From an uncultured Myxococcaceae bacterium (GTDB taxonomy: Bacteria; Myxococcota; UBA727; JABDBI01): 64,000 bases of DNA. Made by a program: the position numbers and the translations under genes. The stretch lies in assembly GCA_964635635.1 (NCBI GenBank), contig CAZWPE010000001.1, positions 639,020 through 703,019 of the forward strand, written 5' to 3'. The notes under the pieces were generated by a model, which worked only from the letters and a program-made list of their open reading frames with translations, was not told where the DNA came from and ran no database searches. This document shows, one piece after another, positions 3,558-49,230 of the stretch (positions are counted from its first letter, which is position 1; each line of letters starts with the position of its first letter).

Positions 3558-4574
3558 TCAAACCCATAAACGCTGAACGCGCTCTGAAATTCCAGTCATG
3601 ACTTCATAATCAATCGTGCCACACATCTCAGCGATTTCAGGAATACTCATGAACGTGATGTCATCTCCCACTTTACAATCCACATCTGTCACGTCGAGTG
3701 TTATTAAATCCATCGACACCCTACCAATCATAGGTGCCTTAGAGCCATTCACCCAGGCATAACCCTGGTTCGACAATGCGCGCAGGATGCCATCCGCGTA
3801 CCCGCCCCTCACGACAGCAAGCCGGGTATCTCGCTTGGCAGTCCAGGTTTTGTCATACCCGACCCCAGTGCCAACTCGAATCGTTTTAAGCAGGGTCACC
3901 GGTGCAGTGAGAGACATGACAGAATCATAAAGCGCAATTCCTGGCCTTACCCAGGTTTCAATCCCAGGATATCGCGTCACATGCCCACTCAATATGGCTG
4001 AGCTTTTGGCTGTATGAATCACTTTTGGCGTGAGTCCTGCTTCCTGAAATTCTTGAAGTGAAGATTCAAATCGCTGAATCTGCAGGGGTGTTTCTGCGTC
4101 TGAAAAATGTGTACTGAGACCTTCCAGGGTCAATTTATGTTCCACTCGATTCCAAGCAGCAATTAAATCAGCCACCTGCGTCCACAAACAACCACCTCGT
4201 GACATCCCCGTATCAACGTCAATATGGACGGCTGCTGTCTTTTCCAACCGACACAATGCTTCAAACTCCGCAATCGATGATATCATGGGCGTAATATTAG
4301 CATTCACAATACGTTCAGCCGTCCAACTTAGCCCTGCACCAGACATTAACAAAATCTGCGCTTTGATGCCCGCACCACGCAAAGCCTCCGCCTCTTCAAT
4401 CGTTGCAACACCAAATTTATCAACACCCAATTCTTCAAAAAATCGCGCAACCGCAAGAAAACCATGCCCATAGGCATTGGCTTTAATCATTACAACCAAC
4501 CCGCACCCGGGTGCCAATTGAAGAATCCGATCATAATTCGAACGGAAAATATGAGCATTAATTAGAGCTTTCAT
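3558..4574 (-). CDS. alr: Alanine racemase
   Basis: 338 aa. PLP-lysine motif VMIKANAYGHG and typical alr length and architecture. Confidence 0.9.
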   Translation of the reverse strand: MKALINAHIFRSNYDRILQLAPGCGLVVMIKANAYGHGFLAVARFFEELGVDKFGVATIEEAEALRGAGIKAQILLMSGAGLSWTAERIVNANITPMISSIAEFEALCRLEKTAAVHIDVDTGMSRGGCLWTQVADLIAAWNRVEHKLTLEGLSTHFSDAETPLQIQRFESSLQEFQEAGLTPKVIHTAKSSAILSGHVTRYPGIETWVRPGIALYDSVMSLTAPVTLLKTIRVGTGVGYDKTWTAKRDTRLAVVRGGYADGILRALSNQGYAWVNGSKAPMIGRVSMDLITLDVTDVDCKVGDDITFMSIPEIAEMCGTIDYEVMTGISERVQRLWV

Positions 4575-6591: not shown

Positions 6592-7983
6592 ATGTTTTTG
6601 AGGCTTTTTCTTTTCCTACTCGCCATAACATCGTCATTGCGAGGAGGCGTAGCCGACGCGGCAATCCACTGCAATGTTTTGATTTTAGGTGCCGGGCCCG
6701 GGGGCGTCCATACTGCTTACCAGCTTTCAAAATTACCTAATCAAAATATTTGTGTCGTTGAAAAAGAAGACCATCTGGGTGGAAGACTTTTTGACGTCGC
6801 ACTGGATCCAACCCACCCTCAATGGGTCTATGGCATGGGTGGCCTTCGGGTAATGGAGTCTCAAAAAAATGTCTTGAATCTGGCCAAAGAAATCGGTGTT
6901 GAACTTGAATATGCGCCTTACAAAGACACACTAATTAATACGCGTGGTATTTTTGGGGCAGATTCTGGAAGTATTGCCAAGCAAGCTTACCCGCTTGTTC
7001 AAATCAGCGAAGATGATTTGTACAAAAAATTACTGACCAGCCCTGAGCGTGCCAATGCCAAAAAATATCCCAGCATACGCTCCTACATGCAAAGCGTAAT
7101 TGGCGCTGAAGCACAAACTTTTTTACATGATGTCTCTCGTTTTCGAGCAGAGTTTGAGGCTCCTATCGATGTACGTTCTTATTTGGATTATATGGACGAA
7201 GAAATGGAAACCTGTTGCAATGCCTACTACCCAACGGGTGGCATGTCCGCATTTGTTTATAAAATGGCAGATCACGCGCGTTCTCGGGGTGTTCGTTTCT
7301 TTAGTTCAGAACCTGCCATAAGCATCCACAAAGCTTTTGGACTCTATCAGGTCAAAACGCCACATTATGTTTTCGAGGGTCAAAAATTGGTGATTGCAAT
7401 TAACGCCCAAGGCTTCAAATACGTCGGTGGAGATATCGCTCGGCGAATTCAATCACAGAGACAGTTTCAAGATATACTCGGCATCAAAGTCGTGACTGTC
7501 GCACAACAATTTCCAAACGCCTGGTGGCAGAATACCAATATCAGACGTGCTTGGACCAATGAGCATTGCCTCAATGCGCTCGAAATTCCCCTGAACACCT
7601 ATGCCGTACAGCAGCGTGTCATGCGCAGTGTATATGATGATGATATGCGCTGTGTCTCATTTTGGGAAAATACTTATCGCCATTTTGGACTAAAAGGCGT
7701 TGAAACTGAAATCATGAAGGGCTTGAAGCACCTCTTTTCTGGGGCTCATATCCCGTGGCCATCAAACACAGTGATTCAATTTTGGCCAGCTGCTTGGTAC
7801 TACTTGCGGGCCGGTACTCCTTTTAGCAATCGTGAGATTGCAGAGTGGGCTGTGGAGCCGCTACCAGGTGAAGATGTTTCACTGGTTGGAGATTCTTACT
7901 ATATTCAGCGTTCCGGCTGGAGCGATGCGGCTTATAAATCTTCGATGAATACCTTAAAGAGGCGATTTGGGATGGAAAATTAG
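6592..7983 (+). CDS. Secreted FAD-dependent amine oxidase / NAD(P)-binding oxidoreductase family protein
   Basis: 463 aa. N-terminal signal peptide, then Rossmann dinucleotide motif VLILGAGPGGVHTAYQLSK. Confidence 0.6.
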   Translation: MFLRLFLFLLAITSSLRGGVADAAIHCNVLILGAGPGGVHTAYQLSKLPNQNICVVEKEDHLGGRLFDVALDPTHPQWVYGMGGLRVMESQKNVLNLAKEIGVELEYAPYKDTLINTRGIFGADSGSIAKQAYPLVQISEDDLYKKLLTSPERANAKKYPSIRSYMQSVIGAEAQTFLHDVSRFRAEFEAPIDVRSYLDYMDEEMETCCNAYYPTGGMSAFVYKMADHARSRGVRFFSSEPAISIHKAFGLYQVKTPHYVFEGQKLVIAINAQGFKYVGGDIARRIQSQRQFQDILGIKVVTVAQQFPNAWWQNTNIRRAWTNEHCLNALEIPLNTYAVQQRVMRSVYDDDMRCVSFWENTYRHFGLKGVETEIMKGLKHLFSGAHIPWPSNTVIQFWPAAWYYLRAGTPFSNREIAEWAVEPLPGEDVSLVGDSYYIQRSGWSDAAYKSSMNTLKRRFGMEN

Positions 7984-9941: not shown

Positions 9942-10487
9942 ATGAGAAGCTTATTCTTCGCGTTCTGGGCTTGCACCCTTCTGGCCCAAAAAGATCCTTT
10001 AAAATCGGTTAAAGCCTTAGACCTGAAACGCTATATGGGCCTATGGCATGAAGTAGCTAGGCTCCCCAACTCATTTGAGCGCAACTGCGAAAAAGCAACT
10101 GCAGAGTATTTCCTCAATGATGATGGAACTGTCCGAGTTTTGAATACCTGCGTCAAAGAAAATGGATACACCAAAAACATTAAAGGCAGGGCCTATATCC
10201 CAGACCCAGACTACCCTGCTCAGTTAAAAGTTAACTTTGTACCTAAGTGGCTCAGTTGGACAGGTTTGGGTTGGGGTGACTATTGGGTAATCGATCTAGA
10301 TTCCGATTACCAATGGGCTGTGGTGAGCGAGCCCTCCCGCGAATATTTGTGGATTTTAAGCCGATCCCCCCAAATGCCGCCCGAAGTATTTGGCGGTATT
10401 GTGAATAGACTGAAAGCGAAGCAATTCGATCTAACGCACCTCTTGATTTCGCCAGACTCTAAAGCTCTCAGCCGCTTGCTCAAGTAA
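9942..10487 (+). CDS. blc: Bacterial lipocalin (outer-membrane lipoprotein Blc)
   Basis: 181 aa. LDLKRYMGLWHEVARLPNSFE, DYWVIDLDSDYQWAVVSEPSREYLWILSR match the Blc signature regions. Confidence 0.85.
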   Translation: MRSLFFAFWACTLLAQKDPLKSVKALDLKRYMGLWHEVARLPNSFERNCEKATAEYFLNDDGTVRVLNTCVKENGYTKNIKGRAYIPDPDYPAQLKVNFVPKWLSWTGLGWGDYWVIDLDSDYQWAVVSEPSREYLWILSRSPQMPPEVFGGIVNRLKAKQFDLTHLLISPDSKALSRLLK

Positions 10488-13214: not shown

Positions 13215-13912
13215 TGCTTCCTGAGCACGTGGCGATCGTCATGGACGGCAATGGCCGTTGGGCAAAAGCTCGAGGTCTTTCGCGTCTTGAAGGTCATCGT
13301 GCTGGCGTCAACAGTGCCACAGATATCGTGCGTTACTGCGGTGAACTTGGCATTCGCTACCTTACGCTCTATGCATTCTCCTCTGAGAATTGGAAGCGCC
13401 CTGCTGAAGAAGTCATAGGAATTATGGATCTGCTGCGCGAGTATCTATCGCGCGATAGCAACGAACTTGTTCAAAAAGGGGTACGGATTCAAGTGATTGG
13501 GAAGTCTGAAAAACTTCCCTTTGCACTTCAAACAGCTCTCAAATCTCTGTGCGAGAAAACAAAGCTTGGCAATAAACTTATTTTAACGATTGCACTTTCA
13601 TATGGATCACGCGCAGAAATTGCTGAAGCTGCTAAAAAAATCGCCTGGGATACCTTAGAAGGACGTCTGGATCCTGAAAAGATAAGTGAAGAAGTCTTTG
13701 CAGGATACCTACAAACTACAGGTATTCCAGACCCAGATTTATTAATTCGAACCAGCGGCGAAAAACGCCTATCCAATTTCTTATTGTGGCAGCTCTCATA
13801 CACTGAACTTTATATAACTGAAACGCTTTGGCCAGATTTCAACAGGGCTTCACTTGATTTAGCCTTGGCAGACTATGCGCGCCGCGAGCGACGATTTGGA
13901 GACGCCTCATGA
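13214..13912 (+). CDS. uppS: Di-trans,poly-cis-undecaprenyl-diphosphate synthase
   Basis: HVAIVMDGNGRWAK, ENWKRP, RTSGEKRLSNFLLWQ motifs. Confidence 0.9.
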   Translation: MLPEHVAIVMDGNGRWAKARGLSRLEGHRAGVNSATDIVRYCGELGIRYLTLYAFSSENWKRPAEEVIGIMDLLREYLSRDSNELVQKGVRIQVIGKSEKLPFALQTALKSLCEKTKLGNKLILTIALSYGSRAEIAEAAKKIAWDTLEGRLDPEKISEEVFAGYLQTTGIPDPDLLIRTSGEKRLSNFLLWQLSYTELYITETLWPDFNRASLDLALADYARRERRFGDAS

Positions 13913-14565
13913 ATCTTTTTTTGCGTATTATTAGCGCACTTATACTGTTACCTGGTTTTCTAGGTCTGTTTTACTTAAGCGGCTGGCCCCTCATGGTTTT
14001 GCTCGGTTTTATGCTGGCAACGTGTCTTTATGAATATTGGCAGATGATCCGAAATGTCATTCCAGCGAAAGCTGGAATCCAGGCATGGACCCCAGCCTAC
14101 GCTGGGGTGACAATTGGTATTGCCTACATCACACTCGGCATTAGCTCCCTCTATTTTCTACGTGAAAAAGCTGGATTCGCTGCAATTTTATTGGTTTTGA
14201 TTGCCACCTGGTCCAATGATACTTTTGCCTACTTCGCCGGAAAAACCTTTGGGAAACACAAACTGGCCCCAAAAATCAGTCCTGGAAAAACCTGGGAAGG
14301 CTTCTTCGGTGGCGCTCTAGGCTCCATCTGTATGCCATTAATCCTTTCGAATTTCTTAATACCACTCAGTACAGCTCAAATTCTTGGCGTTGCAGTTCCA
14401 TGCATCGTGTTGGCACCAGCGGGTGATCTGATCGAAAGCTGGATTAAACGCCGGCATGGAGTGAAAGACTCTGGCAGTTTGTTACCTGGACACGGAGGTG
14501 TTTTGGATCGAATTGACGCCCTACTGCTGACAGGACCCTGGGCTTTGATCTACTTTATACTATGA
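13909..14565 (+). CDS. cdsA: Phosphatidate cytidylyltransferase, carrying an in-frame palindromic-element insertion (see repeat 14055..14112)
   Basis: DTFAYFAGKTFGKHKLAPKISPGKTWEGFFGG and GHGGVLDRIDALL motifs. 4-nt overlaps with uppS and the downstream gene. Confidence 0.9.
   Translation: MNLFLRIISALILLPGFLGLFYLSGWPLMVLLGFMLATCLYEYWQMIRNVIPAKAGIQAWTPAYAGVTIGIAYITLGISSLYFLREKAGFAAILLVLIATWSNDTFAYFAGKTFGKHKLAPKISPGKTWEGFFGGALGSICMPLILSNFLIPLSTAQILGVAVPCIVLAPAGDLIESWIKRRHGVKDSGSLLPGHGGVLDRIDALLLTGPWALIYFIL
14055..14112. repeat. REP/RPE-like palindromic element inserted in frame within cdsA (encodes NVIPAKAGIQAWTPAYAGVT)
   Basis: tgtcat-TCCAGCgaaaGCTGGA-atccaggcatgga-CCCCAGCctacGCTGGGG-tgaca. 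Two perfect stem-loops (6 and 7 bp) bounded by terminal inverted repeats tgtca/tgaca. ~57 bp = 19 codons, frame preserved. Confidence 0.6.
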
Positions 14566-15104
14566 GCAAAAATGCAGCTCACATGATTAGTCAAGCCCGT
14601 CTAGAAAGACGTAAAGCCGCTGCTGATATTGCTGTAAGTCTCATCTCCGCCAAAGCCGATACTGATTTTGATCCAGCCAACTCCCCACTATGTGCCGTTG
14701 ATGTTGTCATGATTGCCGGAGCACCTTGGCTCAGAGAAGCCCTTGAAAAAGATTTCTCTAAAGATGAAAGTGGTTATCGAAAAATTGGTGGCGGTGCCAA
14801 CACTCCTGATAGACCTTATTTTTTCCGAAGCACCGCAAATCTAATCTATTTTTTAAAACGTCAAAATCTCTATTTCCCAAGAGGCTCAATCAAACCAAGT
14901 ATCGGGATGGCTTGTTTCTTTGACCATGAGGAACGGGGGAGATTTAACTTTATCCCCGATCGCAGTGGAATCATCACAGATATCCACAATGATCATGTCC
15001 GGGAAGTAGTGATGGCACTCGATGGTCTAGAAGTAACAAGGGTTCCAATTATTTTAGGGGGCCCCTTAGAACAAGCACTTATTGGTTATTCAGACCTACC
15101 TTAA
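14562..15104 (+). CDS. Hypothetical protein (sits where dxr normally follows cdsA)
   Basis: 180-aa ORF, 4-nt overlap with the cdsA stop. No recognisable motifs. Confidence 0.4.
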   Translation: MSKNAAHMISQARLERRKAAADIAVSLISAKADTDFDPANSPLCAVDVVMIAGAPWLREALEKDFSKDESGYRKIGGGANTPDRPYFFRSTANLIYFLKRQNLYFPRGSIKPSIGMACFFDHEERGRFNFIPDRSGIITDIHNDHVREVVMALDGLEVTRVPIILGGPLEQALIGYSDLP

Positions 15105-42059: not shown

Positions 42060-42119
42060 TAGCTAGTCTACCCAATGGAGAACTCAAATGACAAGCGTGG
42101 ATTCCAGCTTTATTTCAGA

Positions 42120-42177
42120 CTATTTTGCACGGTTTTGCAAAATAGTCGTGACTTTTTTGCAAAACCGTGCAAAATAG
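42120..42177. promoter_or_regulatory. Perfect 22-bp inverted repeat (ctattttgcacggttttgcaaa ... tttgcaaaaccgtgcaaaatag). Candidate operator or leader hairpin ending ~7 bp before the ATPase start codon.
   Basis: The arms are exact reverse complements separated by ~14 nt. Lies in the divergent patatin / AAA-ATPase intergenic region. No SD visible between it and the ATG. Confidence 0.5.
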
Positions 42178-42183
42178 TCAGAT

Positions 42184-43299
42184 ATGGAACGGGCTCAGAA
42201 ACAGGCCATCTTAAGAGATTTAAATAAAAAAATGGTTTTTCTTGCAGGTCCGCGCCAGGCAGGAAAGACCACTTTGGCCAAGGAAATCGCCAAAGAGTTT
42301 GGTTCGTCTGTATATTTAAACTACGATAGTTTGACCGACCGGAAGATTATTTTAAAAGAGGAGTGGCTGCCTTCTGTTGAATTTTTGATTTTGGATGAGA
42401 TTCATAAAATGCCCAAATGGAAGAATTATTTAAAGGGCATCTATGACACCAAACCTGCTCATCAGAAGATTTTAGTGACTGGCAGTGCTCGTTTGGAAGT
42501 TTTTAGAAAAGTTGGAGATTCTTTAGCAGGTCGTTATTATTTGCATCGATTGATGCCGCTTTCACCCGCAGAATGTGAAAAAATGGGGGTTGCTTACACC
42601 CTTGACCATTTTATGGAACGCGGTGGATTCCCAGAACCGTTTTTTGCTGAAAATGCCGTAGATGCTGGTCGTTGGCGGATGCAATATATCGACAGCTTGC
42701 TTCGAGAAGATGTGCTCAATTTTGACAACATTCAAAATCTTAATTCTATACGTTTGGTGTTTGATTTATTGCGCGAACGCGTCGGCTCGCCGGTCTCTTA
42801 TAGTTCAATCGCTGAGGATTCTCAGTTGGCGCCCAATACCGTTAAAAAATACATTCAAATTTTAGAAGCACTTTATGTCGTGTTTCGAGTGACACCCTTC
42901 TCAAAAAATATTGCTCGTAGCTTACTGAAAGAACCTAAGATTTATTTTTTTGATACGGGATTGGTCAAAGGCGATCTTGGAGCAAAGTTTGAAAATTTGA
43001 TGGCAACTTGTTTGATAAAGCATGTTTACGAAAAAATAGACTATCAGGCAGAGCCGTATTCTTTGCACTATCTCAACACCAAAGATCGAAAAGAAGTCGA
43101 TTTTGCATTGATCAATGACAATCGAGTCGAGCAGATTATCGAGGCTAAATACTCAGATGGCTCAGTGACTAATGCGCTTCGATATTTTCATGAAAAGCAT
43201 CGACTAACGGCCACTCAAGTTGTCAAAGAACTTAAACATGAGCGGACAGACAAGGGTATTCATGTGTTGACAGGAATCAATATGCTCAAGGCGCTATAG
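42184..43299 (+). CDS. AAA+ ATPase of the COG1373 family (AAA_14 N-domain plus DUF4143 C-domain, a predicted PD-(D/E)xK-fold nuclease)
   Basis: 371 aa. Walker A LAGPRQAGKTTL, Walker B LILDEIH. C-terminal KEVDFAL...IIEAKYSD D...ExK-like motif. Confidence 0.7.
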   Translation: MERAQKQAILRDLNKKMVFLAGPRQAGKTTLAKEIAKEFGSSVYLNYDSLTDRKIILKEEWLPSVEFLILDEIHKMPKWKNYLKGIYDTKPAHQKILVTGSARLEVFRKVGDSLAGRYYLHRLMPLSPAECEKMGVAYTLDHFMERGGFPEPFFAENAVDAGRWRMQYIDSLLREDVLNFDNIQNLNSIRLVFDLLRERVGSPVSYSSIAEDSQLAPNTVKKYIQILEALYVVFRVTPFSKNIARSLLKEPKIYFFDTGLVKGDLGAKFENLMATCLIKHVYEKIDYQAEPYSLHYLNTKDRKEVDFALINDNRVEQIIEAKYSDGSVTNALRYFHEKHRLTATQVVKELKHERTDKGIHVLTGINMLKAL

Positions 43300-48790: not shown

Positions 48791-49044
48791 AGGCGGGAGT
48801 GCCAGTCTGCCAAATCTTAAGGTCTAATGCAAACCCGATTTAATCTTCTGCGGTTTCAGACCGGGGGGTGTCAACCAACACAAAATCATCCAGTTCATTT
48901 GAAGGACAGCGGTTTTGTGGTTCTTCCAGCTCCTCTTTTAAAGGCACTGGTGGTAGGTTTTGACGAGGGGGAACACGTGGGTTGTTAATAGGCATTACCA
49001 TGTGATGTATAACTCTGGACATTCCTAAAAAATGCCCAGAAACC

Positions 49045-49092
49045 TCACCCCTAACCCCTCTCCACCAAGTGGAGAGGGGAGTTGCCAAAGAA
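49045..49092. repeat. Second copy of the CCTCACCCC...CCCTCTCC-loop-GGAGAGGG palindromic element (intergenic, between dnaE and tRNA-Ser)
   Basis: cctcacccctaacCCCTCTCCaccaagtGGAGAGGGGagttgcc. Same flank and stem as the pdxA insert, with a different loop. Confidence 0.45.
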
Positions 49093-49140: not shown

Positions 49141-49230
49141 GGAGAGATGGCCGAGCGGTTTAAGGCACTGGACTTGAAATCCAGCGTAGGGGTAACTCTA
49201 CCGTGAGTTCGAATCTCACTCTCTCCGCCA
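49141..49230 (+). tRNA. tRNA-Ser (anticodon UGA), class II with long variable arm
   Basis: Acceptor stem ggagaga/tctctcc + G + CCA. Anticodon loop cTTGAaa. TPsiC stem gagTTCGAATCtc. Extra arm gcgtaggggtaactctacc. Confidence 0.9.

Follow-up and report, generated by a model that had tools for sequence, protein, structure and literature searches.

An in-frame palindromic insert in cdsA of a Myxococcota-affiliated lineage, very probably a compact doublet of CGTC-1-type REP units

How does a strongly folding palindrome come to lie inside an essential gene and leave its reading frame open? The gene is cdsA, which codes for phosphatidate cytidylyltransferase, in a 64-kb stretch of DNA from an uncultured Myxococcaceae bacterium (contig CAZWPE010000001.1 of assembly GCA_964635635.1); this whole stretch is called the window below. 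The palindrome occupies positions 14055-14112. An earlier note had read it as a selfish element of the kind known as repetitive extragenic palindromes (REPs) or Rickettsia palindromic elements (RPEs). Our analysis supports this class and revises the anatomy: the 58 bp very probably form a compact doublet in which two CGTC-1-type REP units, A and B, stand inverted on either side of a 4-nt spacer, in the part of cdsA that codes for the coil between transmembrane helices 2 and 3. CGTC-1 is a family of small palindromic repeats that are non-autonomous and occur in many bacterial phyla.

A strongly folding palindrome lies in frame in cdsA

The element, TGTCATTCCAGCGAAAGCTGGAATCCAGGCATGGACCCCAGCCTACGCTGGGGTGACA, is a 58-nt near-palindrome that begins with TGTCA and ends with TGACA. 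It contains two hairpins, ATTCCAGC-GAAA-GCTGGAAT and ACCCCAGC-CTAC-GCTGGGGT in plus-strand reading; both are perfect, as the earlier note had stated, and their stems of 8 bp are slightly longer than was given there. Folding predicts these hairpins to be stable. As RNA, the surrounding 78 nt reach -39.8 kcal/mol (z = -6.4), and as DNA the 58-mer folds into a three-hairpin cruciform arm closed by the TGTCA/TGACA ends (-19 kcal/mol, z = -6.0); no shuffle equalled the element in either test. Shuffles of the window give an expectation of zero matches to either half, and over 2,908 bp an independent Logan assembly built from another run (L003) shows no difference. The palindrome is a genuine feature that chance does not account for.

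General annotation tools did not recover the element. Rfam returned no match at the gathering threshold and none at E <= 1 within 13900-14300, a scan for terminators and promoters found nothing at the element and no terminator-like tail, and the element is absent from the 25 pairs listed by an inverted-repeat finder. There is no flanking direct repeat around it, with GAAA preceding the initial TGTCA and ATTG following the final TGACA.

Bases 14056-14112 make up exactly 19 codons (V50-T68, peptide VIPAKAGIQAWTPAYAGVT) and hold no stop, so that the gene stays open. The 19 residues of the earlier description therefore stand; the span is 58 nt instead of 57, and the 20-residue string given for it includes the native Asn49. 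In an AlphaFold model of CdsA (mean predicted local distance difference test score, pLDDT, 87.3), helices span residues 3-23, 26-48 and 63-88, and residues 49-62 form a coil of pLDDT about 50 between predicted helices 2 and 3. Of the element-coded residues, 50-62 fall in this coil and 63-68 form the first turns of helix 3 in the model, in agreement with the suggestion that the insert occupies a loop. Residues 63-216 align to residues 123-282 of Thermotoga maritima CdsA (4Q2G), and the catalytic C-terminal domain is unaffected by the insert.

Comparison with the 14 closest CdsA orthologues of the clade, which include Myxococcota/Myxococcaceae metagenome-assembled genomes (MAGs), confirmed an insert of about 19 residues: the aligned loop segment has 5-11 residues in 9 of these 14 proteins versus 22 in the window CdsA. 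As in RPE-type insertions, the insert is in frame, the open reading frame (ORF) is intact and most orthologues do not have the additional residues. The helix-2/helix-3 loop is predicted to be cytoplasmic by the positive-inside rule, given the flanking R48 and K54 and a strongly basic loop (111-128) two helices later. At such a place the element would persist as a tolerated passenger filtered by selection, since only stop-free inserts of a multiple of three nucleotides would survive in a length-variable loop of an essential gene, and its DNA may be able to extrude as a cruciform or hairpin.

Two further observations concern the gene and its neighbour. CdsA is short throughout the clade (200-221 aa), with about 60-70 residues on the N-terminal side missing compared with the 290-aa T. 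maritima enzyme. The ORF that follows, 14562-15104 (180 aa, without a Pfam family), overlaps cdsA stop-to-start, and its position is kept in every relative examined.

Each half has the anatomy and the relatives of a CGTC-1 unit

CGTC-1 units are defined by an unpaired CGTC tag, an 8-bp stem with A-T at positions 1-2, a 4-nt loop and an unpaired 3-nt tail of consensus CCA, with TGTC and CCTC accepted as variants of the tag (Di Nocera, De Gregorio and Rocco 2013, BMC Genomics 14:522; PMC3733652). Both halves of the element follow this plan. The element has TGTC at either outer end (14055-14058 and, as reverse complement, 14109-14112), each tag is followed by an 8-bp stem with a 4-nt loop, and CCA ends both units; unit B has C at stem position 2, a variant that occurs in 21 of 154 units elsewhere. 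Against a covariance model (R1) for which 50 units from other genomes were used, unit A scores 47.8 bits and unit B 43.2 bits, and the next match in the window reaches 14 bits. Since each half carries the tag, the 8-bp stem, the 4-nt loop and the CCA tail and has matches within the family, the REP/RPE reading is supported. What the earlier note took for one unit with short terminal inverted repeats consists instead of two REP units in inverted orientation, forming a doublet whose spacer is at the compact extreme.

The same paper supplies the bridge to RPEs and the precedents for a position inside a gene. It equates CGTC-1 with Rickettsia RPE-6 and Neisseria dRS3, and according to its supplement VIPAKAGI, a peptide also encoded here, is what CGTC-1 units code for inside R. 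conorii RC0483 and RC0657 and inside the gene of a Chlorobium membrane protein, while SIPAKAGIQ...DSRLRGNA is the product of a dimer within Micavibrio PolI (PMC3733652). REPs are mostly intergenic, inverted dimers predominate among CGTC REPs, with usual spacers of 20-100 bp (1-2 bp in some families), intragenic dimers code for 20-30 residues, and no transposase is associated with them (PMC3733652). The supplement has no entry for cdsA or a cytidylyltransferase, and its intragenic list contains no peptides of the second CGTC-tagged family described below.

The units are widespread. When the unit pattern GTCAYYCCAGCGNNNGCTGGRRTCCA was scanned across a genome collection with one genome per species, the 26-mer was found in at least 120 genome stretches (L006-L125) from other phyla, many of them free-living; the expectation that such elements are confined to host-associated lineages does not hold. 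By record title, the carriers among the matches listed include Alpha-, Beta-, Gamma- and Zetaproteobacteria, Chloroflexota, groups of the candidate phyla radiation, Nitrospirae, Ignavibacteriae, Acidobacteria, Bacteroidota, Planctomycetia, Verrucomicrobiia, Spirochaetales and Cloacimonadota. Unit A is the commonest variant among the matches listed, and unit B (GTCACCCCAGCGTAGGCTGGGGTCCA) is identical at 26 of 26 positions to a unit in a Francisellaceae MAG. The unit pattern also matches 26 stretches of viral contigs (IMG/VR, L131-L156). As a side observation, one of the viral contigs, IMGVR_UViG_3300022666_000355, holds at least 7 units within 27.8 kb, and the groups that share identical CGTC-1 26-mers number at least a dozen, counted as phyla or classes by record title, besides the viral contigs.

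This distribution leaves virtually no chance for an origin on the spot, be it by chance, template switching or compensatory substitutions, or for an assembly artefact, in either case unrelated to mobile repeats. Such an origin would suit the single copy in the window. It is contradicted by the 26/26 identity of both halves to units in unrelated phyla, by the zero expectation from shuffles and by the presence of the element in an independent assembly and in a second species (see below). Moreover, exchanging TT/AA for CC/GG in both arms would take eight coordinated transitions. We rejected compensatory substitution for the swapped arms as unparsimonious, with both arm types being natural unit variants elsewhere.

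The doublet lies in opposite orientation in a sister species

The sister species P0002 (L001, GCA_964484075.1), whose CdsA shows 86% identity, carries a 19-codon insert at the same codons, NALTPSKAGAQPWIPAFAGMT. Its doublet (L001 10147-10204) has the opposite orientation to that at 14055-14112: it differs at 8 of 58 positions from the reverse complement of the window copy and at 14 of 58 in direct alignment. The match is closest between the left unit of the window and the right unit of the sister, which differ at 1 of 29 positions. Unit B of the sister has decayed (17.2 bits), having lost its tag and one stem pair, and the sister doublet as a whole folds at z = -2.4.

The earlier note had named the same residues in orthologous CdsA proteins as an observation that would speak against an insertion. 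Formally P0002 is such a case, and the other orthologues are without the element; because P0002 carries the same element flipped and the others lack it, the reading stands.

Across the two species, four-fold sites are 42% different (synonymous divergence, dS, about 0.9). At that rate, the probability of 8 or fewer differences in 58 is 3e-6, so the doublet has changed much less than a relic evolving neutrally would have. The element was inherited or re-acquired as a doublet. This comparison resolves its history only in part: the lineage to which the window organism and the sister belong either had the doublet already or received it, as one unit. The opposite orientation at the same codons points to in-place inversion, antiparallel gene conversion or repeated insertion at a hot spot, which leads to two histories.

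The first, which we tentatively put forward with somewhat less than even confidence, is a single insertion before the two species split, followed by inversion in place or antiparallel conversion, after which the units were kept canonical. Recombination or cleavage at the TGTCA/TGACA ends could have produced the flip, as could gene conversion from another copy paired in antiparallel, and DNA-level constraint or homogenisation would have followed. Identical codon boundaries and the very rare 4-nt-spacer architecture common to both copies fit this history, and the spacer too matches better when flipped (TGCC vs GCCC). Furthermore, units of the second CGTC-tagged family lie at the same sites of pdxA and an amine oxidase gene in both genomes, which indicates that such inserts are inherited. 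However, 1 difference in 29 positions of unit A against the divergence at four-fold sites calls for extra constraint or recent homogenisation, and an inversion needs crossovers inside the 5-bp ends. Flipping the present doublet of the window would also yield an in-frame TAG from its GTAG loop, a place where the sister has GAAA, so that a flipped ancestor must have had another loop.

In the second history, possible in our view and held with a shade more reserve, the loop-coding site is a hot spot at which both species independently and recently gained the doublet, in opposite orientations, from a source family in the genome. The small divergence from canonical units suits such young insertions, and a clean, recent repeat insertion in pdxA indicates that elements were active after the split. 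Against it, the nucleotide-exact site would have had to be used again, and a source family with compact 4-nt spacers is needed, of which neither about 99 kb of sampled sequence nor a metagenome scan yielded another copy. The states of the site in further relatives also bear on this history.

Different repeats occupy the same CdsA loop in relatives

The window genome, P0002 and a third sister, P0003 (L005), are equidistant at about 83% nucleotide identity and form effectively a trichotomy. At the loop-coding site of P0003 (cdsA at 199-819) there is no CGTC unit; what the site holds is a triplex-motif repeat reduced to its right half, GTGGAGAGGGGTTAGGGGTGAGG. In a second clade, P0010 and P0007 have a full or decayed triplex-motif repeat in the CdsA loop, and the second CGTC-tagged family is represented by a doublet in P0006 and by a shortened remnant of it in P0005. 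One CdsA loop has thus received three repeat families across seven related species. For a hot spot with independent gains, it counts in favour that the site differs among all three sister species (A-B, B-A and a triplex-motif remnant) and that two further element types appear in the same loop of the second clade.

A broader and, on this evidence, unlikely proposal is that structured repeats have landed repeatedly in the helix-2/helix-3 loop of CdsA and taken each other's place, the flipped doublet recording an active structure-directed process. Such a process could work by cutting an extruded cruciform at its YGTC tags and rejoining it there, or through antiparallel gene conversion between palindromes. 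If the proposal is true, the cdsA locus is a natural before-and-after series for how CGTC REPs move.

A selected role of the hairpin appears very improbable. The hairpin might serve ribosome pausing after helix 2 emerges, the stability of the uppS-cdsA transcript, or a host protein as a DNA site. Its strong fold within a translationally coupled operon, the conservation of the units between species beyond that of neutral sites and the canonical copies in the window genome where those of the sister have decayed would agree with a function. Yet most orthologues are without any element at this place and others hold unrelated ones, and neither an Rfam match nor a terminator-like tail was found at the element. 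The sister, with its unit B lacking the tag and one stem pair and its weak doublet fold, also argues against a selected hairpin.

Evidence that weighs against a CGTC-1 doublet

Reading the element as an inserted CGTC-1 doublet has to be set against several points. The first is the spacer: of 63 doublets with outward tags in other genomes, most have spacers of 10-50 nt, 3 have 0 nt and none has 1-8 nt, which makes 4 nt atypical. The exact compact doublet was not found elsewhere either. A metagenome scan for its junction (GCTGGRRTCCA-N4-TGGAYYCCAGC), a pattern too narrow to say much, gave 5 matches that are unrelated palindromes without the outer halves, some of them within a coding region.

Copy number is the next point. 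Described CGTC families have tens to thousands of copies (PMC3733652). We searched the window with exact patterns, patterns of up to 3 mismatches, a tag-hairpin-CCA scanner and the covariance model with filters off, and a second CGTC-1 copy was absent from the 64-kb window and from 35 kb of the sister genome; two weak covariance-model matches in the window belong to a different, longer CGTC-tagged family. Together the window genome and the sister were sampled over about 99 kb. With 20-50 copies per genome of a few Mb, less than one copy is expected in such a sample, so the absence is not decisive. Membership of a CGTC-1 family within the host genome, resting on about 99 kb and a single doublet site, is unproven.

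Finally, a true empty site is absent from the comparison: the closest element-free orthologue, P0003, has a remnant of a different repeat in place of a simple joint. The insert is presumably translated and the protein presumably active. As to a source of mobility, a Pfam scan of 37 window ORFs showed no transposase family (including Y1), and no parent insertion sequence (IS) was seen in the window. To our knowledge, no dedicated transposase of CGTC repeats is known.

Other small repeats in the window

The window contains 5 small structured repeats in 64 kb, 4 of which lie in frame within genes: one in cdsA, two in pdxA and one in an amine oxidase gene (Table 1). The window genome and its relatives show in-frame repeat insertion unusually often.

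Two of the repeats are copies of the intrastrand triplex motif repeat that Holder et al. described in 2015 (Nucleic Acids Research; PMC4666352). The copy in pdxA has the layout CCCTCTCCCC tttt GGGAGAGGG ct GGGGTGAGGGG. This clean insertion measures 36 bp; neither the sister genome (L160) nor any of 13 other PdxA orthologues has it, and it shows that small repeats were recently active in the lineage, after the split. Another copy is intergenic, and we note that a 23-base part of it, GTGGAGAGGGGTTAGGGGTGAGG, is identical to the CdsA-loop remnant of P0003 (L005).

Another two belong to a second CGTC-tagged family, GTCATTGCGAGGAGGCG..GCAATCCA. It is CCA-tailed and has a longer interior, GTCATTGCGAGGAGGCGnnGCCGAnGCnGCAATCCA, and both copies encode SSLRGG.A.AAIH. 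The sister has a decayed copy at the pdxA site and, at the amine-oxidase site, a strongly decayed stretch that is 3 nt shorter.

Table 1. Coordinates of the element, its parts and the other structured repeats (window positions unless a contig is named)
Feature	Position	Strand	Description
cdsA	13909-14565	+	phosphatidate cytidylyltransferase, short form, 218 aa, intact ORF; Pfam CTP_transf_1, E = 3.6e-57
Whole element	14055-14112		inverted pair of CGTC-1 REP units; tags on the outside, CCA tails facing each other
Unit A	14055-14081	+	R1 E = 8.6e-12; identical 26-mers in many unrelated genomes
Unit A, tag	14055-14058	+	TGTC
Unit A, stem, first arm	14059-14066	+	ATTCCAGC
Unit A, loop	14067-14070	+	GAAA
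Unit A, stem, second arm	14071-14078	+	GCTGGAAT
Unit A, tail	14079-14081	+	CCA
Spacer	14082-14085		GGCA, 4 nt, between both CCA tails; read from the sequence
Unit B	14086-14112	-	R1 E = 2.1e-10; matching Francisellaceae MAG unit in L045
Unit B, parts		-	TGTC, stem ACCCCAGC, loop GTAG, stem GCTGGGGT, CCA; CC/GG stem variant
Second CGTC-tagged family, amine oxidase	6633-6668	+	N-terminal region of amine-oxidase ORF 6592-7983 (Pfam-assigned); in frame, peptide SSLRGGVADAAIH
Triplex-motif repeat, pdxA	34338-34374	-	CCCTCTCCCCttttGGGAGAGGGctGGGGTGAGGGG, in ORF 34110-35003; in frame, adds 12 residues, PLPFWERAGVRG
Second CGTC-tagged family, pdxA	34864-34899	-	single unit GTCATTGCGAGGAGGCG..GCAATCCA; in frame, peptide SSLRGGEAEAAIH
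Triplex-motif repeat, intergenic	49043-49079	-	about 60 bp upstream of tRNA gene 49141-49227
Second-CGTC-family doublet, CdsA loop of relative	L004 6887-6957		
Second-CGTC-family doublet, shortened remnant, CdsA loop of relative	L159		cdsA at 1152-1778
Triplex-motif repeat, CdsA loop of relative	L158 about 10140-10180		
Triplex-motif repeat, CdsA loop of relative	L157 about 3590-3640		

Two larger inverted repeats were seen besides. At 42112-42185, a 36-nt inverted repeat (92% complementary, 2-nt gap) stands directly upstream of an ATPase gene with AAA_14/DUF4143 domains (42184-43299). The sister has a gene with AAA_14/DUF4143 domains at a different place, adjoining pdxA (L160 10886-12211), and this gene may be mobile. 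The other inverted repeat, at 62936-63033, has 36-nt arms that are 81% complementary and 26 nt apart, and lies in a minus-strand ORF without a Pfam match (62571-63086).

Significance and comparison with known systems

With this locus, in-frame protein-coding palindromes, best known from Rickettsia, are seen in a Myxococcota-affiliated lineage as well, and in a membrane enzyme that is essential; three repeat families together can supply four such inserts to a single short window. How CGTC REPs, which have no known transposase, move or persist is a question on which the reversed orientation in the sister and the repeated use of one loop by different repeats both bear. For annotation, the element explains a low-confidence, lineage-specific loop of CdsA, and similar odd segments of PdxA are explained in the same way.

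Several classes of small repeat invite comparison. A miniature inverted-repeat transposable element (MITE) was rejected as a description: there is no target-site duplication, the whole element is palindromic instead of being bounded by inverted repeats, and no parent IS was seen. Intrastrand triplex-motif repeats (TMECO) are likewise small, structured repeats found across phyla, and a repeat of the TMECO type occupies the same CdsA loop in relatives as well as pdxA here; unlike a CGTC REP, they combine a CCCTCTCCC/GGGAGAGGG hairpin with a third strand, GGGTGAGGG (PMC4666352).

The Neisseria repeat dRS3, ATTCCC-N8-GGGAAT, is the one equated with CGTC-1 (PMC3733652). The units here share its frame, ATTCC....GGAAT, with GTC before and CCA behind. 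Units of dRS3 are clustered and intergenic and act as integration targets, whereas the window copy is solitary and lies in coding sequence.

REPINs, reportedly introduced by Bertels and Rainey in 2011, are said to be REP doublets that form hairpins and are mobilised by RAYT transposases. Their REPs are tagged with GTAG, and the cognate RAYT gene is flanked by REPs. The element resembles them in having two inverted REP units with a short spacer that can fold into one long hairpin, and the doublet is apparently the thing inherited or moved; it differs in its tag (TGTC instead of GTAG) and in the absence of a Y1 transposase from the window ORFs scanned.

The palindromic elements of Rickettsia were reportedly described by Ogata and co-workers in 2000 and 2002, the classic RPE-1 being 100-150 bp long. 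As with RPEs, a selfish palindrome stands in frame in housekeeping genes, leaves them intact and would be translated as a surface or loop segment, and several genes of one genome are hit, here cdsA, pdxA (twice) and an amine oxidase gene within 64 kb. Unlike RPE-1, the element is 58 bp long and made of two short units, and the host is not Rickettsia, with nothing indicating obligate intracellular life. The link to the RPE class is drawn through the equation of RPE-6 with CGTC-1 and the VIPAKAGI peptides of RC0483/RC0657 (PMC3733652).

The closest counterpart is CGTC-1 itself (PMC3733652). The element shares with it the YGTC tag, the 8-bp stem starting with A, the 4-nt loop, the CCA, the arrangement as an inverted dimer and the existence of in-frame intragenic copies, as well as encoded peptides (VIPAKAGI and ..PAFAGMT) and the lack of an associated transposase. 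It departs from the norm of the family in the 4-nt spacer, in the C in place of T at stem position 2 of unit B and in being the only copy in the sequence sampled, and its host, a Myxococcota-affiliated MAG lineage, is absent from the paper (PMC3733652). The type of event, an intragenic, RPE-like dimer of CGTC-1 REPs, is already documented; the lineage and the gene are new.

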